From assembly GCA_951406725.2 (NCBI GenBank), contig OX597823.1, forward strand, positions 100,254,001 through 100,318,000: a stretch of 64,000 nt of DNA. The letters run 5' to 3'. The position numbers were made by a program, and so were the translations under genes. Each line of letters begins with the position of its first letter. Positions within the stretch are counted from its first letter, which is position 1. The notes beneath the pieces are model-generated. The model worked only from the letters and a program-made list of their open reading frames with translations, did not search any database and was not told the DNA's origin. Shown here piece after piece: positions 1 through 47,200 of the stretch. This DNA is from Octopus vulgaris (taxonomy: Eukaryota).

Positions 1-1352
1 CCCATCTTTTTTTAAAACATTCGCTAGACAAAACTTGCCTCTCTACTCTCACTTTCCTTTTCAAGTGATACCTGAAGAAGTTGATGACAGATTGACCAGA
101 GAGGAAAGTGTTTGTCTCCAATCCTTTCAGACGCGTCCACCAGATACATTCTTTCGCCATAGCCACAAGTATGATAAAAATAGCTCTTCCTTCCCGTTTG
201 AAGGAGGCGTGACGATATTAAAGATAGACTCGGCTGATAAACCGATTCGTCCCACACGTGACAGCAGTCGTTCGACATAAGCCCACAGGTCGGAGTTGTT
301 GGACACTGCACGATTGCGTGCAGAACGGTTTCGTCGCTCTGACCGCATCTCGGGCAGGTCGGCCTCGTGTTTCTCTGGAAGTTGTCCATACGTCCCGACC
401 CGAAAGTCGTCTCAAACAGGCGGGTCAGGTATTCCTCGTCGACGCCCAGGTTCGCCCAAGATCGTCGTCGTACCTCCCCTCCACTAATTCCCTATAGAAT
501 GATTTGGTTGTGTTGAAGTCACTCAAGGTCGACCCTGGACGGCATAGTTGCTTGAGAGCAACACGACACTCGCGATGCCATTCGCCTAGCCTCGGCCTCT
601 TTTTGATCTACGACTGCAGTTCGGTCATGGAGACGAGCTGCGGGAAGGCGTGCCTCACAAACGGCGACCACATCTGTTCACCGTCGTCTAAATAGAGCTG
701 GAGATATCGCAGTCTCAGCGCGTCTGCGCATCATTAACCATGGCATCTCCAGCCCTACTTTTAACGAGTGTTGACAGCAAATGGATCGCCTGACCATCGG
801 GACGCATCCTTTCCACAAGAAGCGGAAGACAATGCGTTCTAGTTTGGTGATGGTAGGGTCGGGACAAGGTACGACGGTCAGGCGGTAGTAGATGATGGAC
901 GCGATGTACGTGTTCTCCACCTCCGCCCGACCTTTTAGGGACAGTTTCCTCTCGGCCCATTACCGGGCGAGAGTGACCACCCTACTCATTATCTCGTTCC
1001 AGTTCTTCTCCAATTGGAGGTACGGACCAAACCAGACACCGAGCAACTCCGTCCAGCGTCCCAAGACGGAGGCGCTGCTGGACGGCATGGGCTTGCTTCT
1101 CCAGGTGCCGAGCTCCAAGTCCACTGACTTTTCCCGGTTGATTTTCGCTCCTGTCACCGCTTCGTAGTCTTTCAGGGTCTCGCCGACCAGCTCGAAGTGT
1201 TCGTGGCTTGACACTATGTCGGTGACGTCGTCCGCGTATGCAGACACGCTCGTCCCGCATCCCAGTTCTCGCGCGATGCCCCTCAGAGTCTCCAGCTTCC
1301 TCAGTAGTGGCTCGAGAGTCAATATGTATAGAAGCGACGAGAGGGGGCATCC
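1..1352 (-). mobile_element. Tx1-like (L1 clade) LINE, 5'-truncated and frameshifted ORF2 (end of RT plus C-terminal region); runs off the window edge
   Basis: Minus-strand ORFs give GCPLSSLLYILTLEPLL, SAYADD, YRLTVVPCP and CPRCGQSDETVLHAIVQC. The 5' truncation abuts (ATCT)n. Confidence 0.9.
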
Positions 1353-1446: not shown

Positions 1447-4400
1447 GTTTTTATTGTGGCCACACAGGGCTAAACACAGAAAAAATGGACGAAATACAAT
1501 GTAGAGTTTTTCTTTTCGAGGTGGGATGGGTGGGACACACAAAGAAAAAACGTTCGATCAATAGGGATCTGTGGGTTATGTGGTGTATAAAAAGCAATAT
1601 ATATAAAGTTCACAGTTTAGGTGTAGCCTTGGAAAGAAAAACCTACAAAAAGCCCAAGGTCACCTCAGACAGTTCGAAATGTACACAAGAGTAAGTCACC
1701 TTACCTCTCGTTGTCTCTTTTGGTTACAGATTTAAGCTTAAAATGGTGTCGTCTTTCATACTGACCATTTTTTCCACTTTTACCCACTTTTTATTGAAAC
1801 ATTCGTTCGACAAAGCCTTCCTCTCTATTCTCGTCCTCCTTTTCAAGTGGTACTTGAAAAAGTTGACGAGAGACTGACCAGAGAGGAAGGTGTTTGTTTG
1901 TAGCCCTTTCAAACGCGTCCACCACACACATTCTTTCGCCATAGCCATCAGCGTAACGAAACCCGTTTTCCCTTCCCGTTGAAAGGAAGGTGGTGGAACA
2001 ATATTCACGATAGACTCGGCCGATAAGCGGGCCCGTCCTACACGCGACAACAGCTGTATGACGAAGGTCCACAGCTCTGAAATATCTGGACACTGCACGA
2101 GTGCGTGCAGAACGGTGTGGTCGTTCTGACCGCATCTCGGGCAGGTCGGTCCGGTGATGGTTTTCGAACCGTGCCTGTAGTTCTTCTCTCGAACAGGGAG
2201 TGCGTCTCGATAGCATTGCTAAGCCAGGGATCTCTGGAAGTTATCCATAGGCCCCGGCCCGAACGTCGTCCTGAAAAGGCGGGTTAGGAGTTTCTCGTCG
2301 ACGCCCAGGTTTGCTCCGAGTGTGTCGTCGGACCTCCCCTCCACTAGTCCTCTATAGAACGCTTTAGTCGTTTGTAAGTTGCACAAGTTTGATCCCTGAC
2401 GTCAGAGCTGCTTTAGAGCTTGGCGACACTCTCGGTGCCAATCGCCCAGTTTCGGTCTCTTCTTGATCCACGTTTGCAGTTCGGTCAGTGAGACGAGCTG
2501 CGGGAAGGCGCGCCTCACAAACGGCGCCCACACCTGTTCACCGTCATCGATGAAGCTCCAGAGATGTCGCAGTCTCAGCGCATGCCTGCGCATCATCAAC
2601 CACGACATGCCCAGTCCTCCATTTAACGGATGTTGATAGCAAATGGACTGCCTCACCATCGGAACGCCACCCTTCCACAGAAAGCGGAAGACTATGCGTT
2701 CCAGTTTGGCGATGGTAGCGTCGGGACAAGGCACGACGGTCAGGCGGTAATCGATGACGGATGCGATGTACGCGTTCGCCACCTCCGCCCGACCTTTTAG
2801 AGACAGCTTTCTCTCGGCCCATGTTTGGCTGAGAGTGACCACTCTACTCGTGATCTCGTCCCACTTCTTATCCATTTGGAGGTCCGGACTGAACCAGACC
2901 CCGAGCAATTTAACCGGTCCGTCCGTCCAGCGTCCCACTACTGAGCCGCAGTCGGACGGCATGGACTTGCTTCTCCAGGTGCCGAGTAGCAAACCCACTG
3001 ACTTTTCCGGGTTAATTTTCGCTCCCGTCACCGTTTCGTATTTTTTTTAGTGTCTCGCCTATCATCTGGATGTGTTTTTCGCTCGACACTATGATGGTGA
3101 CATCGTCCGCATATGCCGACACGCTCGTCCCGCAACCCAGTTCCCGTGGGATGCCCCTCAGTGCCGCCAGTTTCCGCAGTAGCGGCTCGAGAGTCAATAC
3201 ATACAGAAGCGCTGACAGGGGACACCCCTGACGGACCGAACGCGTGATGTCAAACGGTTTCGACAGGTGACCGTTCATCCGAATCACCGATCGGATGCCG
3301 TTATACAAGGCAGCGATCCAACCGTGGAAGACGGGACCGAAGCCAGCCGCCCTGAGGACGACCGCCAAGTACCGATGGTCTACCCTACCCAAGGCTTTAG
3401 ACTGATCCAAATTGATCAGCGCCCCACCCATGCCAGGATCCTTAACTACCCTGTCCACAATGTAGCGCATCAGATGGAGGTTGTCATGTATGGTTCTGCC
3501 CGGCACGGCGCATGTTTGCGCCCTGTCGACCAGTCTACCAATGACAAGCGCCAACCTCTCGGCTATTACTTTGGCCAAAATTTTCAAATCTGCGTTGAGC
3601 AGAGTGATGGACCTGCAATTGTTTGGGTCTTTCTTCAGCAACGTCACTGCCCCTCGGCGCACGAAACCGGGGATTCTCCCGTTTTGTTGCCAGTTGCAGT
3701 AGACTGATGCCAAGAGGTCGCCAAACAAGTCTGGCATTTGACAATACAGCTCGTAGGGTAAACCATCCAATCCAGGCCACTTATCCCTCGCACAGCCCGC
3801 CATCGCATCCAGCACGTCAGCGGCTGTGATGGGACTTTCACAACACTCCGCTTCTCTTGCCGAGAGCCGCGGCAGGTCGGTCAGGTAGGCACTGAAATCC
3901 ATCCCGCGTTCCGACCCACCACTCGCACCAAACAGTCGAGCAAAGTGCTGTTGAAAGGCCTCACACATCCTTTCGGGTTCGAGTAAACTGCATCCCTGTT
4001 GATCTATTAGAGACCGAATGGTGGCTCTGTTGTCACGTTGCGCCTCCGCTACCCGGGCCTCTCGCGCAGCTTCGATTCCTTCGTTCCTTAAGGCACGCAT
4101 TTTAGCTCTGACGACGCAACCTTCGTGTTTGGCGTTGAGGTGTTGGTCGAGGGCCATCCTCGCAGCCAGCACGTTGGTTGCGCTGCCAGTGGTAAGTGCC
4201 TCTTCTAGTTTCTTAACCAAGTCTCCCTCTACTCTATTTCGATCTGTCGTTAATTCCTTGCTAAACCTAACTGATTCCGATTTTATTGCCATTTTCAGGG
4301 CGAACCACCCTCGCTAATCCGGTTCCTGTAAACCTGTCGCGCTAAGAGCGACGTGTTCAGTTTCCAGTTACCGGGACCCTGTCTATGTGTCTTATCTAAG

Positions 4401-5905
4401 TCGAGCATACACGTCACAAATTTGTGATCTGTGTAGCTATTTTAAATTGTGGACATCCTACACTATCCCTATCTTCTGTCCTGCATAGAATTCTATCTAG
4501 ATAAGATCTCGACGATCCGACGCGGTTTGTCCAAGTCCACGTTGGCACGTTCGGATGGTCGAGTCGGAACCTGTCAGACAAATGGAAACGTCTGAGCAGG
4601 TCTTTGAGGCACTTACACCCCCTTCTATTCCTATCCATTCCCACATAGTCTAGATGCGTGTCCAATCCCCTACTAACAGTAAAGGTCTAGACGTACCCAG
4701 GAAAACTTCTAGACGTCTGAAGAAATCCGCCCGACCCGTTAAGGACTGTGCATAAACTGCCATCAGACGGAATGCACACCCATTTCTGCCATCCACGTCC
4801 AAGACAACCAGCCTACCCTCCGGGTCTAGGAATGTTGTTCTTACTTTTACATTTAGACTCTTTCGAAAAAGCACTGCGGTACCTCCACCACCCATGTTCG
4901 GCAGACAGGGAGAAAATTAAATGTCGAATTGATCGCCAAACATGGAGGCGAGGGCCCGCGGCTTGCTGAGTCTGGTTTCACTGTCATCTTCAAAGTCATC
5001 TTCACAGATGTTAGTGTTGGATGCAATGTATTCCATTAGTTTTTTATTGCCCGTGTCTATTGCTGTTAGATGTGTGGTTTTGCGAGGTCATTGATGTTTT
5101 GATTGTCTACGCGGGGGCTGTCAGGAGTTAAATATCTCCCTGCTTTACTTGCTTGTTTGGTGGGCTTTTTTGATCTTTTCCTTTTACCCCCTGTGGCTAT
5201 TTGCCATTCCGTCGAAATTTCCTCGTTGGACGAAGAGTCTGACTAATCAGAAGGGGGTAAAGGCAAAGCATTTGCGTTAATATGTATGTTTGTAGAAAAT
5301 GTTGTTGTTTTGTGCGGTGTTTTTGTTGTTGTGGTGTTAGGGGTAGAATTTGTCTTCCCGTCACTGTTATCTGTTTCCTTAGTTGTCGTCCTTGGTGCTG
5401 GTGTTGGAATGTCTTTTGATGTTGGTTGTGGTTTTGCTTCTTTATTTGGTTGCGACGTCAACGGTAATTGTGTTGGTGCTGTTTCTTTTCATGGTGCTGT
5501 TGTTGGGGTTTGTTTGCTAGTTTGTTGTTGTTCTTGGCGTTGTTCCATATTTTTATATAATTCTTGTATCAGTTGTGGGTTTGGTGGTGTTGGTAGCAGA
5601 GATTTATTTTTTTTTTGTTTTCTGATTTGTTTTTTCTTGTTTTTTCTGTCCCAGAACGCACTTTGCAATTAAGTGGTCTGGGCTGCCACAGCTGTAGCAT
5701 CGTGGTTTTTTACCTTCTGCTACCACATACAGGCTTTGCCCATATGATATTAGGTAAGTTCTCGATAGAAGACCCATCGATTTGAAGGGTCACCTCTATC
5801 GATTTACCACTCCAATTATCATTTTTAAACACGGCGATTTCCAATATGTTTATCGATTTCAAATGATAACATATCGCCGATGTTATCCATTTGGGTGGTA
5901 TTTCT
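1446..5905 (-). mobile_element. Tx1-like LINE, near full length: partial ORF1, decayed ORF2 and 3' UTR ending in AATAAA next to (ATCT)n
   Basis: APE motifs GGTAVLF, LLVGDW, WTWTN and SYLDRIL (4414-4895). RT motifs PGLDGLPYELY, ITLLNADLK, LDQSKA, VRQGCPLS and YADD (3012-4292). C-terminal region 1724-3031. ORF1 remnant with a Cys/His knuckle and Thr/Lys/Pro-rich tail at about 5240-5905. Confidence 0.92.
3012..4292 (-). pseudogene. RT domain segment of Tx1-like ORF2 (426-aa open stretch, frameshifted at both ends)
   Basis: Canonical non-LTR RT motifs including QGCPLS and YADD. Confidence 0.9.
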
Positions 5906-7342
5906 GGCGGGACGATATTAAAGATAGACTCGGCTGATAAACCGACTCGTCCCACACGTGACAGCAGTTGCTCGACATAAGCCCACAGGTCGGAAATTGT
6001 TGGACACTGCACGAGTGCGTGCAGAACGGTTTCGTCGCTCTGACCGCATCTCGGGCAGGTCGGCCCCGTGTTTCTCGAGCCGTGTCTGGAGAGCTTATCT
6101 CGAACGGGTAGCGCTTCTCAGTAGCACTGCCAGGCCAGGGATCTCTGGAAGTTGTCCTTGGGCCCTCGCCCGAAAGTCGTCTCAAACAGGCGGGTCAGGT
6201 ATTCCTCATCGACGCCCAGGTTCGCCCCGAGCTCGTCGTCGTACCTCCCCTCCACTAATCCCCTATAGAATGCTTGGGTTGTTGGAGTCACTCATGGTCG
6301 ACCCGGGACGGCAGAGTTGCTTGAGAGCAACGCGACACTCGCGGTGCCATTCGCCCTTCCTCGCCCTCTTTTTGATCTACGACTGCAGTTCGGTCATGGA
6401 GACGAGTTGCGGGAAGGCGTGCCTCACAAACGGCAACCACACCTGTTCACCGTCGTCTACGTGGAGCCTGAGATGTTGCAGTCTCAGCGCGTGTCTGCGC
6501 ATCATCAACCACGGCATGCCCAGCCCTACTTTTAACGAGTGTTGACAGCAAATGGATCGCCTGACCATCGGAACGCATCCTTTCCACAAGAAGCGGAAGA
6601 GAATGCGTTCTAGTTTGGTGATGGTAGGGTCGGAACAAGGTACGACGGTCAGGCGATAGTAGATGACGGACGCGATGTACGAGTTCGCCACCTCCGCCTG
6701 ACCTTTTAGGGACAGTTTCCTCCCGGCCCATTACCGGGCGAGAGTGACCACCCTACTCGTTATCTCGTTCCAGTTCTTCTCCATTTGGAGGTACGGACCA
6801 AACCAGACCCCGAGCAACTCGACCGGACCGTCGGTCCAGCGTCCCACGACGGAGACGCTGGTGGATGGCATGGGCTTGCTTCTCCAGGTGCTGAGTCGCA
6901 AGCCCACTGATTTTTCCCGGTTGATTTTCGCTCCTGTCACCGCTTCGTAGTTTTTCAGTGTCTCGCCGACCTGCTCGATTTGCTCGTGGCTAGACGCTAT
7001 GACGGTGATGTCGTCCGCGTATGCAGACACGCTCGTCCCGCATCCCAATTCTCGCGGGATGCCCCTCAGAGTTGCCAGCTTCTGCAATAATGCCTCGAGA
7101 GTCAATACGTATAGAAGCGACGAGAGGGGGCATCCCTGACGGACCGAACGTGCGATGTCGAAAGGTCTCGATAGATGTCCATTTACGCGAATTACCGAAC
7201 GGATGCCTCTGTACAAAGCGGCTATCTAGCCGCGGAAGACGAGACCGAAACCAGCCGCTCTGAGGACAGCCTCCAAGTATCGATGGTCTACCTTATCGAA
7301 AGCTTTCAATTGATCCAAATTGATCAGCGCCATACCCATGCC
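5906..7342 (-). mobile_element. Tx1-like LINE, 5'-truncated in RT, 3' end missing; same subfamily as 1-1352
   Basis: ORFs 6731-7216 (QGCPLS, YADD) and 6377-6691; visibly close nucleotide similarity to 1-1352. Confidence 0.9.

Positions 7343-7424
<82 letters not shown>
7343..7424. repeat. (GATA)n microsatellite at a Tx1 5' junction
   Basis: Direct reading. Confidence 0.98.
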
Positions 7425-21244: not shown

Positions 21245-21581
21245 AAAAGAAATCCCACCCAGGAAGAAAAAGAGGAAAATTGTATGCTTGTCGAATACAA
21301 CACTACTGAACAATACACAAACGAAGCTATTGTGACACATCAGAGGACAAAACTCTATATCCAACATGAAGGACTGACGCGGAGATGTGCAGCAATAGGG
21401 GAAACCCTATACCGCGACTTAAAGGAAAGGAACCCGAACGCCATTTGAAATATTAACGAATTACCAAATTATGCGAAGGAAGGGGCTGATCCACGTGTGG
21501 TGAAGTCGGCCCCAGCTTCTCCAAGGAGAAAGTAAGTAGAACGTTTTACTTTTGTAAACGGACTCACTTAACTTTGGTTGT

Positions 21582-24500
21582 TTGAATGTGCGTGGTCTGA
21601 GTTCGAAGTGGAAGCAGGCGTGTTTCCTCGACGATCTCAGATCACATGATATGCATATGATGGTTGCTACAGAGACCAAGCTGAACAGTCTACAAACCTT
21701 CTCGCTTCTCCTGAATGGCTACGAGAAAATCATATCTCCTGGCCAGGCCGGACGTCGAGGGGTGTAGTGGTACTGATCCGTAAAGGATTGGCTCTGCAAA
21801 CAAGTACAGTCTATGTGGGCCCCGAAGGTGGGCTGGTCGTCCTTGATGTGACATACAGCAGTAAGGCCTTCAGGTTGATCGGACTCTATGCACCTTGTGC
21901 TAGAGGTTTCCAAACTGATTTTTATCGGCGCCTAGAGAACTTTCTCGTGACGTCGAAGACTTTAGTGGTATTACGGGACTTTAATGCTATCGTTGAGGTA
22001 CACATCGATAGTGTTGGCTCGATCCATAGAAAAATGAACTCACGTCTCGTGGATCTGCTTAAGCGGTTTCAGCTGGCAGATCGTTACAGACTTGACCATC
22101 CGAACGTCCTAGAGTGGACCTGGATGAGTGGCGACGGAAGGTTCAAGTCCTACTTAGATAGGATAGTGATAAGAACTGGAGATAAGTCTAGTTTTAGTTG
22201 TCCACAGCTTGTCCAGGTGCCCTATACTGACCATAGAATGGTCAAGTGTAGACTGGACATAGGTAGCACACTTAAGATAAAACCCGGCTACTGGAAGCTG
22301 AACAAGTCTATTTTGACTTGTGAGGCATACCGTAGCCGGATGAAGAAGTTAGTGCAGAGGGCGTTAACCGGAGCCGTGGTTAATAACCGGTGGTGGTTCG
22401 CCCTCAAAAGAGCCATTCGATTCGAGTCCATTAGGTTTAGTAAGCAAGTAAGACTAGACAGGGCTAGAATAAAAGGGCAATTAGTTAAGAACTTAGAGGA
22501 GGCGTTGAGGTTGGGCTGTGCATCTCACATTTTGGCAGCGACAACGGCATTAGACCGTCACCTCAAAACCAAACATGAGGGGTGTAGAGTTCGGGCTAAA
22601 GTGCGAGCATTGGGCCGTGAGGGAATTAATGTTGCTGGATGGGTCCGTACGATAGAACCCAGCGTGGCAATGATGCCACAATTAGGTCTCTTGCGGACGG
22701 AAACGGATGCACGGTCAAGGAGCGGGACGAGATGTGTGAGGCACTTTACAAGCACTTCGACGAGTTGTTCGGGAGGTGCGGGACGCTGGATCATGGTGAG
22801 GCCCTTAGGGACTTCCTGTCTGGCAGCCCGCATCTCTCGGCACGAGAGGCTGAGTGCTGTGAATGATCAATCACGGCCGCAGAGGTAATCGAGGTACTGG
22901 GCGAATTCCCCGGGGAGAAGTGACCGGGTCTCGTTGGTCTGCCTTATGAATTCTACAAAACTATACCAGACTTGTTCGGGCATCTGCTGGCCAGCGTCTA
23001 CGCCAATTGGCAGCAGAATGGGAGAATTCCCAAGTCTGCGAGCCGGGGGATGGTGACGTTGATCAGGAAGGACCCGAGCAAGGTGGACGATATAGGGAAC
23101 TTCAGGCCCATAACTCTGCTGAACACAGAGTTAAAGATTTTGGCCAAGGTGCTAGCGAAAAGGTTGGCGCGGGTCGTGGACAAACTTGTCGGGGAAGTGC
23201 AAACGTGCGCTATCCCGGGCAGGACGATACACGACAATTTCAACCTTATACGCTACTCCTTAGAGAGGGTGGGGAAGCTTTCTGGCGCAGGAGGGGCACT
23301 GGTACATGTAGACCGGTCCTCGAGAAGGCTGGCCTGGGCCCGACCTTCCGCTGTTGGATTGCTGCGTCGTACAGCAACATCGACTCCGTCGTCAAGGTGA
23401 ATGGTTTCCTTTCGAAGCCATTCAGGATCGAGCGTTCAGTTCGTCAGGGGTGTCCCCTGTCCCGGCTTCTAAATGTGTTGGCTCTTGAGCCTTTGCTGCG
23501 GGAGTTAGAGGCACTAGGGGGCGCACCGCATGATCTATGGTGTGGAAGAGGAGCTACGGCGTATGCTGATGACATCTCCATCATCGTGGCGGATGAAGGT
23601 CAGCTTCCAGTGGTGGAAGGGGCTATCAAAAGCTACGAGGCGGTGGCAGGAGCAAAGGTTAAGGACAAGTCAATTGGTTTGCAGCTCGGCACCTGGAGGA
23701 GCAAACCGATGCCGTCCAATAACGTCGTGGGGCGTTGGACGGAAGGTCATGTTAATCTGCTCGGAGTCTGGTTCGGGCCAGACTTCCAGGTAGAGAAAAA
23801 TTGGAGTGAGGTGGCCAGCAAGGTGACTGCTCTAACCCAGACCTGGTCTGGGCGGGCGTTATCCTTGCTAGGAAAGGCGGAGGTGGTGCAGATGTGTATA
23901 GCATCGGTTATCTCCTACCGTCTGACCGTGGTGCCTTGCCCCGATTTGTGGCTGAACAAGTTGGAGAGAATCCTTTTCCATTTATTGTGGAAAGGAGGAA
24001 AGCCACTCGTGAAGCGCTCTGTCTGCTGCCAGAAGCCACTAAAGGGTGGGCTAGGGATGTCTTGGCTGAGGATGTGAAAATTCGCGTTAAGGTTGAGGCA
24101 CCTCTGGCTTTACATGGATGGAGAGCAGATGTGGTCACCGCACGTTTGTTTCTACCCTCCGCAATTAACGTCCTTAACGGACATTGGTAATTGGATCAAG
24201 CAGAGACCTAGGCTGGGGGACTGGCAATTGGAGTGCCACCAGGCACTTCAGCTACTCTCTCGGGCGGGCAATGCCGGCAACAAGAGTTCCACCGCGGATT
24301 TCAATTGTGGGTTAGTGGAAGTTAAGTCCGAAGACGCCTTGGGGGAGACCATGGGCTACGATTAAAATCAGAGAACTTTCGGGCCGGGGTATCTTGACAA
24401 TTACCAGAAGTCTCTGGCTTGGCAGTGCTTCCGTGCGGCGTTACATGTTCGTGATAAACTGTCAAGGCACGGAAGTGCCGTCTCGCCGACATGTCTGAGG

Positions 24501-24881
24501 TGCGGGCAGGACAGGGAAACCGTCTAGCACGCATTTGTGGAGTGTCCGGAATTAACGGGACTGATAGTTTTCGCAGAGCAGCTGTTGTCATCGATGGGAA
24601 GAGTACAGCTATCAGCTGAGATTGTGCCGCCTCCTTCCCTTAACAGGGAAAGGAAGGCTTGCTTTTTCTGCGTAGTAGCTATACTGAAAGAAACAGTATG
24701 GAAGGCGCGTGTGAGAGGCATAGTGTCGGGTATCTTTATATCCGGCCAGGGGTTGGTTAACTTTTTTAGTTACCACCTCAGTAATAAGATCAGGCTGGAG
24801 AAAAGGTACCTGTCACGAGACAGATTCATGAGAAGATGGAAGCCTGTGGCGAGGAAGCTGGGAGTGTTTGGCACCAGGTAA
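21582..24881 (+). pseudogene. Tx1-like ORF2 (APE endonuclease, RT, C-terminal domain), disrupted
   Basis: Motifs spread over ORFs 21582, 21767, 22639, 22972, 23007, 24093 and 24537. Confidence 0.9.
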
Positions 24882-31806: not shown

Positions 31807-33039
31807 TACGAGGGTCGACTGAAAAATGTATAGGCTGACCAAGATGCTCTTATGGAATGTGACCAAATGAAGTTATTTTTCACCAGCCCCACCCCCCTGC
31901 GGTCCACACACTTCTTCCATCGGTGTTGCAGTGTTTGGATTTCATTGGTGAAGAAGCTGTTGCTCAAAAATCTTCTGCGATACTGGTTCCCAGCCAAGTG
32001 TTTTTTGTTTATGTTGGGTCGCCAGATGGGGTCAAGTCAGGAGAAAGGAAGAGTGATCAACCAGTTCAAGGCCACAGACATGCAGAGCAGCCATTGAAAC
32101 TGAGCACTTGTGTGACGGAGCATTGTCCTGATGTAACAAGTTTACTCTCGTCAGTTTTCCTAGGCGTTTGGTCATGTTGGCCTTTCGTTACTGCCTCAGC
32201 AAGTTGACATAACACTCTCTATTGGTAGTGAGGTCATTTTAAAGATAGTCAACAAACACATTGCCTTTTGCATCCTAAAAAACTGAGGCCATCATCTTCC
32301 TTACAGATGAAGCGATACTTTGGAACGGGTACATCTGCCGCATGGATTGTCCCTTTGTCTCTGGCTCAAAGTGATGAACCCAACACTCACGCTGGCTTAG
32401 GAAACTTTCGAAGAAATCAGCTCCATCTGCCTCAAACAATGTCAGATTTTCCTGTGATCAGCCTGGGGCGCTTTTGACCAGGTGTCAGAAGATGTGGCAC
32501 TCACCGAGCAGAAACCTTCATCATGCCAAGTTCATTGTGCAAAATACTCTCCACTCTTCCATGGGATATGCTAACGGCATTGGCTATTTGGTTTATGGCC
32601 AATCGCCTGTCACTGTCATCCATCAGCATGTGGTGAATACGGTCAATGTTTTCTTCAGTAATGGCAGTTGCAGGATGTCCAAACCCTGGGTCATCTTCAA
32701 GACTCTCCCTTCCCTTTCTAAATTCAGGGACCCACTTTTGCACTGTTGATAAACCTGGAGCATCATTCCCTAATGTTGCAACCATGTCAGCATGAATGTC
32801 CTTGAGGGCTAAACCCCTTTTTCGGCAGATAACACAACGATGCAAAATTTTGTCCGTTTTCAAAAGAAGTCACTACAAGTTACTTTCGAAATCTCCTTCA
32901 AAGAGTCAGATGTCAGTTTACCTGGAAAGAAACGATGTAGTTATTTATAAGAAGAGTTGAAATTAATGCATGCAAGATTTCACAGCTCTAGCATCACTCC
33001 TTCATAATCGGTCTATGAACATTACGGCCCATCTTCGTA
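31807..33039 (-). mobile_element. Decayed mariner (Tc1/mariner) transposon
   Basis: TA-CGAGG...CTTCG-TA ends. Transposase N-terminus IHADMVATLGNDAPGLSTVQKWV.EF..GRESLEDD and C-terminus LQHRWKKCVD. Confidence 0.88.
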
Positions 33040-35810: not shown

Positions 35811-35834
35811 TACCATATTGTATGTATGTGTAGT

Positions 35835-35935
35835 AAAACATATGAATTTAGTCTTTCCGCTTACATTTCACTGAGAAAAAAAAATGTTTTTTTTCTCAGT
35901 GAAATGTAAGCGGAAAGACTAAATTCATATGTTTT
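35835..35935. repeat. Near-perfect palindrome with ~49-bp arms
   Basis: aaaacatatgaatttagtctttccgcttacatttcactgagaaaa and its reverse complement are adjacent. Confidence 0.92.
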
Positions 35936-36164
35936 GACCATATGTTTTAACCTATATATAAAAAAAAAGAAAATACATATGTATAACTAATTTCGTTCGC
36001 AAAATTGTAACAATTTTTCTGGTAAGAGGCTGATGTAGCGTGGCAGTTTCAGCAATTGTGAAAAATGACTATAGCGATTGCTAATATCTTCACTGTGTGA
36101 AAGGCAAGGCAGGAATGATCTCGTTTGAGGTTACAACCATCTTTGGTCAACCTGTTCTATTTCT

Positions 36165-36439
36165 AAACACTAATTTGATTGGCTGACAGGACACGAGTGG
36201 TCTCTATGTGTTTCGCGCCACTGGGTGACATGTGACACGAGGGTCCCTACGAAGTCCGCCACTGATTGACACGTGACGCGAATTGTCTCGACTTATTTCG
36301 CGCCATAATTGCGAATCAGCCAATCAAGACTTTCGGTTAAAATTCCATTTTCTGGGGTTCGGTGAGCCAACCAAACAGTATATAAACAGGAATTCATAGA
36401 CACTTGGGTCTCGGTTTCCAGTTCTTTTAAGAGCTAACT
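36165..36439 (+). promoter_or_regulatory. Pol II promoter-like module: inverted CCAAT pair, two TTTCGCGCC (E2F-like) sites, E-box, TATA, then a 6-bp-stem/TTTA-loop hairpin
   Basis: gattggctga at about 36177; tttcgcgcc at about 36210 and 36296; cacgtg at 36270; tcagccaatca at 36316; tatataaa at 36379; AGTTCT-TTTA-AGAGCT at 36420-36435. Confidence 0.55.
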
Positions 36440-36635
36440 TAGACCCCTGCTGCTCAACTAGAGATATGCGATTGTCTCTGCTACTAGCTTAATTTCTCTC
36501 TCTGTGTTGTTTTTTGACTACTCATTACCGACTACCCAATTGCTGACTTCTTCACATTTGTTCGACAGCCGGCGGCTACAGAAACATAACAGGTAGGCAG
36601 TTCTGCCACACCCCCACTGTACGAGGAGCCAAATA

Positions 36636-37986
36636 ATGGCAGACTCAGAGACAGACATAACAGAAGCTGACATCCGTGAACCAAAACCATTGTCTGACAT
36701 GGAGTCAGACACGGAGAAAAGAAGACCCGTAGCTAAAAGGTTAATAGCGGCACCGAGCCTGGTAGTAGGTGCCGTGAAAGAAACTCTAAACTTTGCAGCA
36801 GCAGCTGGAGGAAAAAAGAAGGAGATATGCCTTGACAACTTGGACGCTTTGGAGCAATATATTACAAGGTCCGGATCACAGACCAAATTAATACAACCCA
36901 GGGAGACGCAAGAGGACGTCGAACGGAGAACAGTGATCTTCAAGACATACAATGTCAAGGAAAGAAGAATTGGGTTCTCCACTGAAAACCAAGTAGAGAA
37001 GTGCCTTGGTCCTGTATGGGATAAAATAAAATTTATCTCCTGAGGGAAAAAATTTTCCACAGTCGAAGTGAGGTTCGGCACAGTGGAAGAAGCTAAACTC
37101 CACTCAGTGGAACCTCTGAAATCGGACGAGGTCTTTCTCCTACCTATATACATGGGCAGGAGGACCACAAAAATTACAATTACAAGGGTCCCCCCACCCC
37201 GAAATAGAGCCTGAGAGGCTGGTGGCAGCCGTAACCTCGGGCCTCAGGGACAAGATCAACATAATCAGCGCGGTGGTGGAAGAAGCAAAATTCTGGGTCG
37301 GCCAGAAAGTGACTGTCACACTGCAGGCCGAGCCAGCCACCTTAGATGAGTTCACCGAGGCGATAGACATCAATGACAACCATCTACCAGTCATGGTGGA
37401 AGGTCGCCAGCCCAGGTGTTTCCTATGCGGGAAAAAAGGGCACATCCGGAAAAACTGCGAACCAGCAGGAACAGACAAAACAGTAAAGCCCTCAACCCCT
37501 GTCGAAACGTCTGCTACCCCAGCAACAGTAGATCTAACAACGTCAACATCAGAAGAGAAAGAAGGAGAAGGATGGACAGCCGCCGCCGCAAAAAGAAAGC
37601 ACAGGAATCCATCCCCGGAAAAAGGAAAGACCGAAGGAAAACCTGAAGGGAAAAAGAGGGACATCAAAAAGGCGAAAAAACCGGAGAACAACAACAACGC
37701 CTACGTCGCGATCCGGACGGTCGACAGTGAGGTGATGCGACGTGTAGAAACACAGCACCTCCAAGAGATAGAGGTAGAGGAACATTTAAAAAAGGATCTG
37801 ATAAAGGTCTACAAAATAAATCATAAAGCCTACAATGTACTGGCGAACAATTTCAGGAAGGATGTAGGTTCTCTGCGGATGGAGGTCTCGAGTCGCCTGT
37901 ACGAGGGCCTGATCCAGCCAAACCCACGAGACCCGGTCAAGGAGGAGGCGGTTACCCCCCGCCCGGACTCGGAAGGAGCAAGGTAA
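36636..37986 (+). pseudogene. Tx1-like ORF1 with CCHC zinc knuckle; one stop (37041) and one frameshift
   Basis: CFLCGKKGHIRKNC knuckle. The TGA aligns to Arg in the paralogue (ISRG), consistent with CGA>TGA. Confidence 0.85.
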
Positions 37987-37993
37987 GTGATTT

Positions 37994-39769
37994 ATGGCTG
38001 TTCAAGTAGGTTGTATAAATGTACGTGGCCTGATGACGAACTGGAAACAGGGACGTTTTCTAAATGACATCAGGTCACACAATTTAGACATTGTTGTAGC
38101 TACTGAAACTCGGTTAAAGGGACCAAGAGATCTACTCCCGCTCCTAAATGGCTACGAGAGATATATCTCTCCATGCCGGCAGGGGGGCGGAAGTGGGGTG
38201 TTGGTCCTACTTAAAAGGAATAGGGTTTCGGAGAAAAAGGTGATTTTTGTTGACCCAGAGGGCAGACTGGTCGTCCTGGACCTGACATTCAGATGTGGTA
38301 AGGAGGTCAGGCTGGTGGCGGTGTACGCACCCCAAACACAACAGACTGATTTCTTCCAAGGCCTGGAGAAATTTCTAGGGACGTCAAAACCCATAGTGAT
38401 GCTAGGGGACTTTAACGCTATCGTCGATGCGCGTGTCGATAGCGGTGGCTCCAAAAACAATAGGACACCTAACAGTGGCTTCCGGGATCTGCTGAGTCGT
38501 TTCCAGCTGGTAGATCCATATAGACAGGAACTCCCGAACGCTCCACTGTGGACGTGGTCAAATAGCGACGGGTCTTCCAAGTCTTATATAGATAGAATTC
38601 TGGTTAGGAAAGTAGACAAAGATATAGTTAAGTATCCACTGTTCCACTTGGTCAGCTACAACGACCACAAGATGGTCACGAGTGAGCTGTACTTAGATAG
38701 CGTATGTAGAAGAGGATCCGGTTACTGGAAACTCAACAAATCCCTACTGGTGATGGAGGAGTACAGAAGCCGGATTAGGTTACTAATCCAGAGGGCGTTA
38801 ACTGGTTCCATTCTCAACAATAAATGGTGGTTAACGCTCAAGAGAGCCATAAAATACGAGTCCATCAGATATAGCATAGGACTAGCAACGAAAAAGCGTA
38901 AGAAAGAAGAGGGATTAGCTAAAGCTCTAGAAGAAGCCATAAGGTCTGGCGATGGGACCCTGGTGAAAGCGAAGAGACTGGAACTGAACCAGCACCTCGA
39001 AGTCAAACACATGGGTTGCATCGTCAGGGCTAGAATCCGCGCAATGGGAAGCGAGGGTACTAGGGCCGCTAGATGGGCACGAGTTGTGGAGGCTCAGCAC
39101 GGAAATGATTCCACAATTAAGTCTGTGACGAACGAGAAGAATGATGTGGTAAGCAAACCAGAGGAGATGTGTCAGACCTTTCAGGAGCACTTCGCCCACC
39201 TCTTCGGGGGCGGGCGTGGTCCGGATGAGGGGGAGGACCTCACGGGCCTCCTCGCCGGATTGCCGCGCCTGTCGGAGTGGGGAGCGGAGAGCTGTGAAGG
39301 GTCAATCACACTGGAGGAAGTTATGGAGGCCATAGCTGACTGTGGCAGAGGCAAGGCTCCGGGACTCGATGGTTTACCCTACGAACTATATAGAAGTATG
39401 CCAGACTTGTTCGGGCCAATACTGGCCAGCGTCTTCGCGAACTGGAATCAGAATGGGAGGATCCCCAGATCTGTGCGCCGGGGAGTGGTGACGCTGATCA
39501 GGAAAGACCCGGACAAGGGGGACAGAATAGATAATTTTAGGCCCATCACCCTGCTAAATGCAGAGGTGAAGATTTTGGCCAAGGTCTTGACGAAGAGGTT
39601 GACGGATGTCGCGAAAGATCTGATCGGGGAGGCACAAACCTGTGCAGTCCCCGGAAGAACTATTCAGGACAATCTTCACCTCATACGTTACACCATAGAG
39701 GGGTTTGAAAGTAACACTGGCAGGGATGGGGCATTGGTCCATTTAGACCAGAGTAAAGCTTTCGCCTAA
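37994..39769 (+). CDS. Tx1-like ORF2 N-terminal part: intact APE endonuclease plus the first half of RT (591 aa)
   Basis: NVRGL, ATET, GDFN, SYIDRI, NDH, PGLDGLP, RPITLLN and LDQSKAF; the frame ends at a deletion junction. Confidence 0.88.
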   Translation: MAVQVGCINVRGLMTNWKQGRFLNDIRSHNLDIVVATETRLKGPRDLLPLLNGYERYISPCRQGGGSGVLVLLKRNRVSEKKVIFVDPEGRLVVLDLTFRCGKEVRLVAVYAPQTQQTDFFQGLEKFLGTSKPIVMLGDFNAIVDARVDSGGSKNNRTPNSGFRDLLSRFQLVDPYRQELPNAPLWTWSNSDGSSKSYIDRILVRKVDKDIVKYPLFHLVSYNDHKMVTSELYLDSVCRRGSGYWKLNKSLLVMEEYRSRIRLLIQRALTGSILNNKWWLTLKRAIKYESIRYSIGLATKKRKKEEGLAKALEEAIRSGDGTLVKAKRLELNQHLEVKHMGCIVRARIRAMGSEGTRAARWARVVEAQHGNDSTIKSVTNEKNDVVSKPEEMCQTFQEHFAHLFGGGRGPDEGEDLTGLLAGLPRLSEWGAESCEGSITLEEVMEAIADCGRGKAPGLDGLPYELYRSMPDLFGPILASVFANWNQNGRIPRSVRRGVVTLIRKDPDKGDRIDNFRPITLLNAEVKILAKVLTKRLTDVAKDLIGEAQTCAVPGRTIQDNLHLIRYTIEGFESNTGRDGALVHLDQSKAFA

Positions 39770-40755
39770 CCGTCGTCCCCTGTCCGGATTCGTGGGTAAA
39801 CAAGTTGGAGAGGCAAGTCTTCCGCTTCTTGTGGAAAGGTTCCTCCCCTCTTGTGAGACGATCTATCTGTTCTCAAGAGCCGTTAAAGGATGGGTTAGGG
39901 ATGCCTTGGCTGTTGATGCGCAGACATGCGCTGAGGCTCAGGCATCTTTGGGTCTACCTGGAAGGAGATCGGGTGTGGTCTCCGCTCGCAAGACAGACTT
40001 TCCCCAGCTTTGCCAGTTTTGGTGGTAGAGAAACCTGGTTTCGTCGCAGACTAAAATCAAATATGTGGTATTCGGAGTGCCGAAAGGCTCTCATGCGCTT
40101 CCGCAGCTCGGGCAATGCCGGTGGCTTTGGTACAACCGCAGCATTCTATAGCAGGTTGGTAGAGGCCGGAAATGACGATACCCTGGGAAGGACCCTGGGC
40201 CTCGATGGTAATCAGTTGGACAGCCTGTTCCAAAGAACATTCGGACCAGGGACACTGGATAACTTTCAGAAGACCCTGGCCTGGCAGTGTTACAGAGGAG
40301 CCCTACCCGTTCGAGATAAACTCACAAGGCATGGTCACGGTGGACCTTCAGCATGCCCAAGGTGCGGGCAGGATGTGGAAACAGTCCTGCACGCCATCGT
40401 TCAATGTCCGGAGATTTCGGAAGTGTGGGTTTATGCCGAACACCTGTTGTCGGACGAGGGAAGAGTACAGCTGTCGTCTGAGTCAATCCTTAAAATTGAC
40501 CCACCTGGTTTCATGACGAACGAAGGTAAGCATTGCTTTCTCGTGATAGTAGCAGTTGCGAAAGAGGTTATATGGAAGACGAGAATGAAAGGTTTAATGT
40601 CAGACACCATGATCTCTGGCACCGCCCTAACAAACTTCTTCAGGTTCCATCTGAAGAGGAAGGTGGAGCTAGAGAAAAGGTGTCTGACAAAGTCTGTATT
40701 CAAAAAGAGATGGACGCATGTAGCACGGATGCTGGGTGTGAAAGGCCCTGCATGA
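39770..40755 (+). pseudogene. Tx1-like ORF2 C-terminal part (zf-RVT-like, CPRCG..ETVLH)
   Basis: Open 316-aa frame homologous to the other copies. Confidence 0.88.
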
Positions 40756-41372
40756 ACACACCATGATCACCTACCAAAAGTTTCAGCTGAAATAACAGGG
40801 CTCGTGGGGTCGGCTACCCTGTTCTTTTAGCTTCATTGTCCTTTTTTGTTGTTTGTTTTTCGATTTCATTATAACACCACTGTACATAACTCATCCGATT
40901 TCATTGTAAAAAGTTCCATGTTTTGACCCCAAATCATTGTATTGTCCCCATCTGTGTTAATCCGTATGGATAATAAAGAAATACTCGGTTTCCAGTTCTT
41001 CTAAGAGCTAACTGTTGCTACGCTAATCTATACAACTACTGAAAGCCTCTCGAGTAGATTCCAGCATCTTGCCCTATGAACAGTAAACTAAATGCCATTG
41101 TTAATTTTATGTTCAGTACCGTTGGGTATGCTCCACGCCACCCGAACACACAGACACAAAACATGCTAACGCTTACGAACTCTTAAAATCCACATGATTG
41201 TAAAATACGTAAAATAAATAATATTTATCTACCAACAGAAGACTTGTGTCAATTCACTTATGTACTATTGTCGTTTGTATGTAGTTTATGGCTTTGAATA
41301 ATTCGTTAAGAGTAGAACCGCGTGCAATCGTATTTCCTACACGATACGACCAAGCGTGATCCTATTTCTTAC

Positions 41373-41403
<31 letters not shown>

Positions 41404-44192: not shown

Positions 44193-44772
44193 ACTTATAA
44201 ATAAGGGCTAAAGAAAATTATTTCAATGCCAATATGCTGATAACAGACTTTTAAATCGTCAATTTCCACATATTATTTACTCGCTACAGAAAAAAACACG
44301 AAGAACTGAAATCGAGGAAAGCTGGCCGATAGAATTTTTTTTTAAAGTTCGTTATTTCTATATTGAATCAATTTCGGAATTTATCTCATAAAAGATTCTT
44401 TCCTCTTCAGTAGAACATACGAAAGGATATAAATAAGATACTTACATGCGCCCATGGAAAAAAGCCGAAGCAAAAATCATGAGTACATATAAGTACCTCA
44501 GATATATCTAAAAATAAAATTCTTTGGTCAGCCTCAGCACAACGTGTTGACTGTTCTCCACTACAGGTTATAGTGGTTACCAGTCCCTATAACATATTGG
44601 CATTGAAATAATTTTCTTTAGCCCTTATTTATAAGTTGTTTATAATTTTAACCGTAAAGGTATTTTAATATGCTGCCACATTTTTTGATGGAATTTTTTT
44701 CTGTAAAAAAAACTTCATCCTATATTAGTAGTAGACTTATTACTACTCGCTATAGGGACTGGTAACCACTAT
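44190..44772. mobile_element. (TA)n-adjacent element with nested inverted repeats, probably PLE-derived
   Basis: 44190-44236 is inverted at 44593-44639; 44570-44591 is inverted at 44751-44772. Confidence 0.6.
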
Positions 44773-45079
44773 GCTCCACGCCACCCGAACACACAGACAC
44801 AAAACATGCTAACGCTTACGAACTCTTAAAATCCACATGATTGTAAAATACGTAAAATAAATAATATTTATCTACCAACAGAAGATAAAGTTTTTTCTAC
44901 CTATATTTCTTCTACTGCTTGTACTGATATTAAATCTATCACCTACATCTCTATTATTGCTAGTTATATTGATATTACAATTAGTATAATTAAATTCACA
45001 ATTATTGTTCGTTGTGGATCGAGTTATCACATTAATAGTAGTAGTAGTAGTATCTTCATTAGATATATAATTATTGGGA

Positions 45080-46359: not shown

Positions 46360-46830
46360 TACTCTTAACGAATTATTCAAAGCCATAAACTACATACAAA
46401 CGACAATAGTACATAAGTGAATTGACACACATAAGTGAATTGTTACGTGCCCACAGCATGAGTTGAATCTGTATTTATCTTGTGTACAAGTTGAATCTTT
46501 GTAGATGGAGACGATGTTGGTTATGACGTTATGTCTGTCGCTTGGTTTACGATAGCGTCTTCATATTATGTTTTGCTTGGTTATCGTCTGCCTTTCAAAC
46601 TGGAACATGGTTGAGTAAGCTCTGTGTGGTCTCCGACTAAGACCTTAAAAGGTCTTAAGCCAAAAGACATGAATCGTGATATGATCAGTCTATTTAAAGA
46701 GTTAAGATGGCTCAAATGAAAAGTCCTATCCGAAAGCCGTGATTGGTCAGTTTACACACTGGCACGAAGTAAATAGAGAGACAGACCGCGCTTAGATGCT
46801 AACCAATCAAAATAGTGGACACAACAACGT
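46360..46830 (-). promoter_or_regulatory. Diverged second copy of the CCAAT/TATA/hairpin module
   Basis: Minus strand reads cactattttgattggtta...tgaccaatcacggctttcgg...gagcca...tttaaatag, then TAAGACCT-TTTA-AGGTCTTA (46638-46657). Confidence 0.5.
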
Positions 46831-46924
46831 TAAACTAGCCAAAGATGTTTGTAATCTCAAACGAGATCATTCTTAATATTTTTCTCAAACAGTGAAGATA
46901 GCAATGAAGAAAACAATATTGCTA

Positions 46925-47200
46925 CACTATAACCACCGGTCTTCTTTTAGACTCAAACACAAGGCTAATAGTACATCTTTATCACGTAAAATTTGGGAAT
47001 TTAAGGACAAAAATATCGAATTTAACCTTAGATGGTCCATTATTGGATCGGCAGCTACTTATAAAAATAATAGAACAGGTTGCCAGCTATGTTGCTAAGA
47101 ACTTCTAAAAATCATTAGATTCAAAGATAAAAACAAGCTAATTAATAAAAGAGCTGAATGTAAGCCAGCTTGCATGCATAAATTAACTAAAACCTTTAAA
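46925..47200 (+). pseudogene. Penelope-like element GIY-YIG endonuclease C-terminal fragment
   Basis: YNHRSSFR...STSLSRKIWEFK...WSII..A..Y....CQLC...LINKRAE...CMH. Confidence 0.8.

Follow-up and report, generated by a model that had tools for sequence, protein, structure and literature searches.

The locus

The stretch of DNA analysed here (the window) comprises 64,000 nt of the Octopus vulgaris contig OX597823.1. An earlier note on this DNA had described a promoter-like module which occurs twice and is followed each time by a hairpin resembling the histone 3' stem-loop. All promoter motifs and both hairpins named therein were recovered where it had placed them, with 41 and 43 nt separating TATA box and stem in the first and second copy respectively; the second copy, for which a span of 46360-46830 had been given, actually extends from 46453 to 46926. 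The features on which the following account builds are listed here.

35834-35897, minus strand: second, inverted copy of the 3' end of the Gypsy internal region (86% to Gypsy 5036-5099), forming a perfect palindrome upstream of the module
35874-36033, plus strand: Gypsy internal 3' remnant, ending in a purine-rich tract (91% to L031)
36034-36489, plus strand: 5' part of a Ty3/Gypsy long terminal repeat (LTR; U3 and start of R), beginning with TGTA (94% to L031 LTR 1-451)
36177-36182, plus strand: inverted CCAAT box GATTGG (sequence match)
36211-36219, plus strand: E2F-like site TTTCGCGCC, the reverse complement of which is found in part of the host H2A/H2B promoters
36270-36277, plus strand: CACGTGAC, a box that the intergenic H2A/H2B promoters of the host frequently carry too
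36296-36304, plus strand: second E2F-like site TTTCGCGCC (sequence match)
36320-36325, plus strand: CCAAT box CCAATC (sequence match)
36364-36386, plus strand: H2A/H2B-type core consisting of GAGCC (36364), 10 nt and TATATAAA (36379)
36406-36446, plus strand: predicted extended bulged leader hairpin (z -2.07; the outer part of the stem, 85% paired overall, is less well kept than the core)
36409-36410, plus strand: predicted transcription start (placed by TATA+30/31; LINE insertions share this junction)
36420-36435, plus strand: histone-stem-loop-like hairpin AGTTCT-TTTA-AGAGCT with 6 stem pairs, the base pair being A-U, and a loop of 4 nt; its distance to the first T of TATA is 41 nt
36490-40983, plus strand: Tx1/L1-type LINE inside the LTR with a zinc-knuckle ORF1 and an endonuclease and reverse transcriptase ORF2 (broken, internal deletion), identified by ORF domains
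40972-40982, plus strand: LINE tail AATAAAGAAAT
40984-41013, plus strand: target duplication following the Tx1 tail; it includes the window LTR's hairpin once more (40994-41009, loop TCTA), which makes a third hairpin copy in the window
41014-41373, plus strand: 3' part of the Gypsy LTR (rest of R and U5), ending with TACA (93% to L031 LTR 455-815)
46453-46926, minus strand: truncated sister-family LTR (copy 2; untruncated members measure about 1,010-1,030 bp), its promoter elements arranged in the same order
46808, minus strand: copy 2 inverted CCAAT box GATTGG (sequence match)
46746, minus strand: copy 2 CCAATC (sequence match)
46691-46713, minus strand: copy 2 core promoter consisting of GAGCC (46713), 10 nt and TTTAAATA (46698); position weight matrix (PWM) match not significant
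46640-46655, minus strand: copy 2 hairpin AGACCT-TTTA-AGGTCT, with compensatory changes in stem pairs 3 and 4

The module is part of a Ty3/Gypsy LTR

A search of the genome (2.8 Gb, 227 contigs) with window positions 36060-36480 as query yielded at least 46 matches (the best 40 of 548 candidates were scored), several of which form same-strand pairs about 5.2 kb apart. At most other loci the module continues directly into sequence equal to window 41014-41373, and hence 36034-36489 and 41014-41373 represent a single repeat, about 815 bp long and bounded by TGTA...TACA. Between the paired copies, Pfam searches with the ORFs of locus L031 identified gag (DUF7041), protease, reverse transcriptase, RNase H and integrase in Ty3/Gypsy order, and the LTR pairs, which possess TG..CA ends, are 96.6-100% identical in L031-L033 and L035. 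Target duplications of 4 bp flank three of three two-LTR copies, 13 of 29 loci of the LTR family to which the window copy at 36034 belongs (family 1) and 8 of 30 loci of the sister family to which copy 2 belongs (family 2); none was seen at the window's own truncated copy. A candidate primer site, TGGTGACCC, lies directly 3' of the 5' LTR in 4/29 family-1 loci, and a purine tract was found 5' of the LTR in 3/29; the same tract lies ahead of the 3' LTRs of L031-L033 and L035. The 29 family-1 loci divide into 13 solo LTRs with 4-bp duplications (two of which share flanks), four 5' LTRs, three 3' LTRs, one locus without duplication and eight incomplete ones. Family 2, for which the best 40 of 1,013 candidates were scored, is known here from LTRs alone, with a candidate primer-site motif, TGGTGACC, following the LTR in 2 of 30 loci.

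The assignment of the module to the U3-R part of a Ty3/Gypsy LTR is virtually certain. As the purine tract and the remnant of the internal region precede it, the window copy is identified as a 3' LTR, the 3' part of which contains AATAAA at 41213. The earlier note had suggested an undescribed repeat or non-coding RNA family, of which the repeat family stands and the stand-alone RNA does not, and had asked for an LTR or Penelope-like (PLE) terminus, of which the former was found, with paired copies flanking gag-pol, and the latter was not, neither a hammerhead nor a PLE reverse transcriptase being located nearby. A Penelope terminus or hammerhead repeat was also rejected on the grounds that Rfam at gathering thresholds gave no match in the whole window and that the adjacent ORFs are those of an APE-RT LINE and of Gypsy. 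Likewise, a LINE with terminal repeats of its own was rejected, as the repeats belong to Gypsy.

Compared with other Ty3/Gypsy elements (here the DUF7041-gag group), the likeness comprises the paired TG..CA LTRs, the flanking primer site and purine tract, gag followed by protease, reverse transcriptase, RNase H and integrase, the 4-bp duplications and the solo LTRs; what the window LTR adds is an H2A/H2B-type core and a histone-like hairpin, both of which are absent from the related families L349, L352 and L356. L356 possesses a near-identical integrase (91%) but wholly different paired LTRs without GAGCC and without the hairpin, and the module is hence dispensable for the window's Gypsy clade. 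As a separate observation, the LTR pair of L356 (1150-1930), which is 97.5% identical, still contains E2F-like, inverted CCAAT and TATA motifs, as would be seen after LTR swapping within the clade. Only L349, L352, L351/L201 and L356 were used as hairpin-negative control LTRs; 60 further gag loci, many without a 5' LTR upstream, were not counted as hairpin-negative. Beside copy 2, two more family-1 LTR fragments were found in opposite orientations (44770-44885, plus strand; 46360-46429, minus strand), pointing to a rearranged third LTR.

The LINE insertion and the predicted start site

The LINE separating both parts of the window's LTR is one that we take to be of Tx1 type, considering its domain layout. 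The LINE-LTR junction was also present in contigs of two other sequencing runs, which renders an assembly error unlikely. The eight runs consulted consist of contigs, from which neither start, end nor strand of a transcript can be read, and they carry no weight in either direction as regards expression. The target duplication of the window (36410-36489 and 40984-41013) was found to measure about 80 bp at its 5' copy, the 3' copy having suffered a deletion; in L036 and L037 the duplication amounts to 16-18 bp. A pattern combining LINE tail and target gave 12 matches versus none for the control, seven of them located in the window's LTR clade just 5' of the hairpin and five elsewhere, mostly in a SINE-like repeat. 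Wherever the promoter side was readable (window, L036, L037, L038, L339), the junction lies 30-31 nt from the first T of TATA, and one LINE insertion into an H2B gene was found at the same TATA distance by comparison with its paralogue. From TATA spacing and LINE junctions we infer a start site by which the hairpin would occupy RNA positions of roughly +11 to +27.

Tx1 families preferring LTR elements are known from PMC4494074 and PMC4640811, the former of which calls a LINE target-specific when a single kind of target makes up more than 20% of its flanks. That an LTR family is hit again and again at the same site resembles what PMC4494074 describes for Tx1-8_Crp and Tx1-4_AMi, from which the present case differs in that the site is defined as TATA+30..32, that several unrelated elements use it, and that 22 of 30 copies reside elsewhere. 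The other copies among the 30 examined of the window's LINE family locate to the window's LTR (2) and to histone 5' ends (6, with three distinct junctions); given the 22 copies elsewhere, the idea of taking Tx1 targeting as proof of histone-specific recognition was dropped.

Members of the window's LINE family were observed in H2B/H3 5' ends and twice in histone-cluster spacers (L038 at 99.36 Mb, L104-L106, L123, L128). At L038 a nest of LINE, LTR and LINE lies ahead of an H2B gene; at the tail junction (minus strand, oriented position 2185) the 3' target copy departs from its own 5' flank in 2 of 17 letters and agrees there with the window LTR variant, a hint that target sequence from a donor copy was brought along by read-through RNA.

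A promoter core of the H2A/H2B type

The order of promoter motifs in the window LTR includes the TTTCGCGCC sites, which we take to be E2F-like, and a core whose counterpart is specific among the host's own histone genes: GAGCC is located 10-11 nt before TATA in 24/24 H2A and 23/26 H2B genes and in none of 10 H3 and 9 H4 genes, the three H2B genes without this spacing having a LINE tail at that place. When CCAAT, GAGCC and TATA were used as an anchor blind to the hairpin, 53 non-redundant rows were obtained (35 LTR, 15 histone-locus, 3 unrelated), and 29 of the 35 LTR rows possess a hairpin with 6/6 pairs at +37..+44, whereby the underlying loci are a non-random set chosen by searches and 11 of the 35 LTR rows had been found via hairpin-bearing patterns. 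With the H2A PWM, sister subfamilies scored 26.3 (L237), 24.5 (L243) and 20.7 (L314), each with 0/100 shuffles reaching the score, the maximum among window tiles being 10.6; L304 (11.0) and L232 (9.7) likewise gave 0/100, L316 and L305 1/100 and L299 3/100. The window family scored moderately (H2B PWM 12.7, 0/100 shuffles; H2A PWM 5.5, 4/100), family 2 gave no significant H2A/H2B PWM match (22-26/100 shuffles), and three control LTR families were negative. The earlier description of the promoter as histone-like is thus borne out by comparison with the H2A/H2B genes of this genome.

Alignment by nhmmer against histone promoters identified in three subfamilies no more than the short core, and in L316 a longer weak match (E 0.016); family 1 gave no match at all, and no long homology was detected in the LTRs. 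E2F-like, CCAAT and TATA motifs are present as well in the hairpin-less LTRs L349 and L356. The likeness of the LTR core to H2A/H2B promoters, as judged by motifs and matrices, may reflect capture or convergence. A retained copy of the host's downstream TGCGAT motif was considered and rejected: it is found at about +31 in family 1, is absent from the sister subfamilies, and profiles built from downstream sequence only gave E values of at least 0.6. The literature search found no paper on a mollusc GATCC promoter. At L168 (position 1233), an H2B promoter is broken right after the TATA box by a reversed SINE-like insertion.

The leader hairpin

Folding places both 16-nt hairpins at the apex of a bulged stem that extends over about 40 nt, with z-scores of -2.07 for the first copy and -2.93 for copy 2; this extended stem is predicted for most subfamilies, the outer part shifting register between families. 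Covariation was analysed with 18 LTR pieces (15 distinct), none of which had been found via the hairpin pattern, and pairs were counted from a plain alignment. Across the 15 distinct variants 88 of 90 stem cells are paired, as compared with 21-56% for slid controls. Stem pairs 3 and 4 covary, with 12 cells showing two-sided change and 0/500 shuffles reaching the score, whereby only these two pairs covary and the sequences are related and share changes, so that few independent events are represented. Invariant are G2, C5-G12, U6 and loop U1/U3, whereas all four letters are seen at loop position 2. An intact stem was found in 25/29 family-1 loci (three are split by LINEs and one contains a mismatch) and in 27/30 family-2 loci, and four other sequencing runs revealed two differences inside the 16-nt hairpin, both of which keep the fold.

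The specificity of the pattern was assessed in 1.54 Mb of sequence made up of the window and the loci. Among 2,489 distinct perfect 6-bp/4-nt hairpin contexts, 60 carry G2-C, C5-G, U6-A and loop U1/U3, and these 60 are made up of 15 host histone stem-loops and 45 of the AG...CT LTR type, with no others. A looser pattern without C5-G is less specific, as it is reached by 0-2/100 shuffles per LTR and occurs at two unrelated window sites and in one of three control LTRs. Genome-wide, AGTCCT-TNTH-AGGRCT has 369 occurrences as against 26 for the reversed pattern; 29 loci with it were examined, of which 17 belong to the window's LTR clade, 9 to a second Gypsy lineage and 3 are unrelated.

These findings strongly suggest that the hairpin is a selected RNA structure rather than a chance palindrome. 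Consequently, the earlier claim of a conserved hairpin with different stems and the same fold holds as covariation at fixed spacing, and the case which the note had set against itself, an ordinary LTR with a chance palindrome, came true for the LTR and not for the palindrome. Two tandem hairpin units are found in the leader of some subfamilies (L233, L313, L316, L317, L333). Near the 3' end of the L349 LTR, immediately ahead of the primer site, lies a perfect hairpin of 6 AT-rich pairs and a TATT loop, positioned like the U5 units of L344 described below and not histone-like in sequence.

Comparison with host histone stem-loops and SLBP

The histone 3' stem-loop requires U at loop positions 1 and 3, and SLBP is known to have tolerances at the base pair and in the loop. 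Stem-loops of the host read GG(C/T)CCT, loop TTTC, TTTT, TTTA or TCTA, and AGG(G/A)CC in 65 of 69 histone genes, two of these loops (TTTA and TCTA) also being found in LTRs. The distance of the LTR variants to the nearest host stem-loop amounts to 3-5 letters; for families 1 and 2 it is 4-5 of 16, and sister subfamilies approach to 2-3. As had been proposed earlier, of the histone stem-loop letters only the basal G-C is lost and G2, the U-A closing pair and loop U1/U3 are kept: the base pair is A-U in 27/27 LTR variants versus G-C in 49/50 host stem-loops. At least two A among the three 5' flank bases occur in 0/27 LTR variants versus 44/50 host stem-loops, with H4 also at 0/5, and the 5' flank of the LTR hairpin is predicted to be paired. 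A downstream motif of the H2B type was found in 0/27 LTR variants, the true histone downstream element (HDE) of the host itself not being established. The LTR hairpin lies 41-43 nt after TATA without an ORF ahead.

The proposed scoring against Rfam Histone3 turned out negative, as the module's hairpin remained uncalled both at the gathering threshold and at E 10, host stem-loops reaching 22-32 bits in the same searches. In terms of RF00032 and SLBP recognition, the LTR hairpin shares the 6-bp stem, the 4-nt loop, G2-C, C5-G, U6-A and loop U1/U3, but differs by its A-U base pair, its A-poor and paired 5' flank, the lack of a downstream element and of a preceding ORF, its predicted 5' position and its score below Rfam detection. 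As described in PMC12775136, SLBP recognises G7, which equals stem position 2, and contacts A3-A5 of the 5' flank; unpaired A/C flanks are part of the motif as given in PMC5368982. The LTR hairpin fails as a bona fide histone 3' end. It could still act like an SLBP site, and binding of SLBP to the hairpin of the window's LTR lineage is tentatively considered, at somewhat less than even confidence. That the module as a whole is histone-derived or histone-mimicking is probable.

The genome contains one SLBP locus. A search for U7 gave 28.7 bits at best against a cut-off of 34, with controls scoring too. At host histone loci (e.g., L142, L153, L162), TGCGAT lies 34-45 nt past the stem-loop in H2A and most H2B genes, and GA(A/T)(A/T)GTT occurs at +8..20 in 14 of 19 H2B genes; no vertebrate-type HDE was found at these loci, and Rfam found no U7.

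Stem-loops in other transposons

A second Gypsy lineage (L344) carries four tandem stem-loop units in its U5, without GAGCC. These units possess histone-like AAC flanks in 20/25 cases, include a 20-bit Histone3 match and differ by 2 letters from the nearest host stem-loop. Reverse transcriptase and integrase trees, which were built from 13, 14 and 23 of 24 loci, L348 contributing no rows, and which, being unrooted, do not order events, placed L344 with the hairpin-less L349 and apart from the window's clade. In L344, L208 (2071-2200) and L320-L331 each U5 unit was seen to be followed by a TGCGAT-like motif, the array lying just before the primer site.

Following up 16 lower-ranked Histone3 matches led to a Helitron-like repeat, in which an A-rich flank and a canonical stem-loop are followed by tandem A-U variants about 240 nt past the stop of a Pif1 helicase. 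The label Helitron is an assumption of ours based on Pif1 and on features of the 3' end adjacent to the stem-loops. A Helitron-type 3' end was found at 5/20 loci and at least one stem-loop unit at 18/20. The family (L372, minus strand, oriented 1498-1680; L380, L375, L388-L407) has at least 45 matches, of which the best 40 were scored, and reaches 21-31 bits with Histone3. An H2B-like downstream motif follows 9/31 units versus a background of 0.9%, the motif having been chosen after H2B had been seen. Among the elements considered, this family is the strongest candidate for a message other than that of a histone with genuine 3' processing of the histone type.

As a second Gypsy lineage and a Helitron carry tandem and more canonical histone stem-loops, the borrowing from histone genes recurs. 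In a wider and rather unlikely reading, transposons of this genome would have repeatedly hijacked the replication-dependent histone pathway, by a promoter and a cap-proximal SLBP site, by U5 stem-loops and by Helitron 3' stem-loops, thereby gaining S-phase or early-embryo expression, export and translation via SLBP.

A proposed mechanism and its alternatives

Considering promoter and hairpin together, we suggest, with confidence that falls just short of even, that the LTR acts as a histone-gene mimic in which the promoter provides timing and the leader hairpin a weakened SLBP site. Initially, the H2A/H2B-type core would fire the LTR together with the histone genes, presumably in S phase or at cleavage stages. 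The hairpin, located about 11 nt past the predicted cap, would then serve as a weakened docking site for SLBP and not as a cleavage signal, since the downstream element is absent and AATAAA remains at 41213. Finally, SLBP bound to the leader hairpin would help export or translation of the uncut RNA.

The alternative that survives best assumes that a histone stem-loop was captured and now has only a retroelement leader role without SLBP, be it in strand transfer, in packaging or in shielding the 5' poly(A) signal, as for TAR. HIV-1 TAR is a bulged stem-loop at the start of R; the window hairpin resembles it in being a bulged stem-loop at the predicted R start and differs in sequence and by its 4-nt loop. 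This possibility, though on the unlikely side, is in line with the fixed cap-proximal position, with the extended bulged stem of most subfamilies, with the loss of the A-rich flank and of the downstream motif and with the uniform A-U base, but leaves unexplained why variation affects pairs 3-4 and loop position 2 and spares G2 and loop U1/U3, and why A-U variants also occur in the U5 array and in the Helitron.

It is improbable that the likeness to histone genes is coincidental and that the LTR is an ordinary one, whose promoter motifs are those of proliferation genes in general and whose leader hairpin is unrelated. CCAAT-rich LTRs are indeed known, LTR12 being an example (PMC11417402), and E2F-like and CCAAT motifs in control LTRs, the negative Rfam result and the distance of 4-5/16 letters between family-1/-2 hairpins and the nearest host stem-loop would fit. 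On the other hand, all 60 five-feature contexts among 2,489 are of histone or LTR type, sister subfamilies are only 2-3 letters away from host stem-loops with H2A core PWM scores of 20-26, and promoter and hairpin likeness both indicate one gene class.

Very improbable is a histone-type, poly(A)-free 3' end provided by the hairpin of the 3' LTR, which would leave an R of only about 35 nt: the hairpin, lying in R, would also be present at the RNA 3' end and 9/31 Helitron units (versus 0.9%) carry the H2B-like motif, picked after H2B, but the downstream motif is found in 0/27 variants of the window's lineage, AATAAA is present at 41213, and the 5' copy would be cut too. A stand-alone family of short capped non-coding RNA genes with an S-phase promoter can practically be dismissed, as the solo repeats that make up most copies, and which might speak for it, are solo LTRs with 4-bp duplications and the paired copies flank gag-pol.

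Relation to known systems

LTRs containing a control sequence of a multicopy host gene, as suggested here for the histone-gene mimic, are known from Cassandra, Helenus and Ajax, which according to PMC10886601 are non-autonomous and possess Pol III promoters of tRNA or 5S genes; the present Gypsy element, by contrast, codes for proteins and combines a histone-type promoter for Pol II with an RNA hairpin. The main text of that paper makes no mention of histones. Human LTR12 is likewise an LTR with NF-Y sites that is tied to the histone 3'-end machinery: its CCAAT boxes are accompanied by an HDE-like, U7-pairing motif which is bound by U7, the LTR being repressed (PMC11417402). For the window LTR the link is a stem-loop, and no HDE-like motif was found. 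Ty3-like LTR elements and L1-Tx1 LINEs of the octopus have been catalogued, the main text of PMC13282606 lacking mention of histones, and PMC12775136 regards SLBP and the stem-loop as reserved for histone mRNAs. The literature search, which was thin on subscription papers and Repbase reports, found no report of histone stem-loops in LTR elements or Helitrons.

If the suggested mechanism is true, transposons become active in step with DNA replication and in embryos at cleavage stages, a period in which new copies enter the germ line, and the host would be unable to close the SLBP route without harming its histone supply. A histone-derived Pol II case would thus be added to the few LTRs made from host gene parts. 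The natural variants, i.e., the A-U base, the paired flanks, the 5' position and the tandem arrays, are useful for probing the tolerance of SLBP.

Other repeats in the window

Further diverged LINE copies, 64-69% identical to the LTR-borne LINE, are located at 662-1352, 2045-4575 and 5905-7344 on the minus strand and at 21576-24866 on the plus strand, those on the minus strand ending near (GATA)n repeats. A fragment of a Mariner-type transposase (HTH_48, under the curated cut-off) lies at 32501-32869 on the minus strand.
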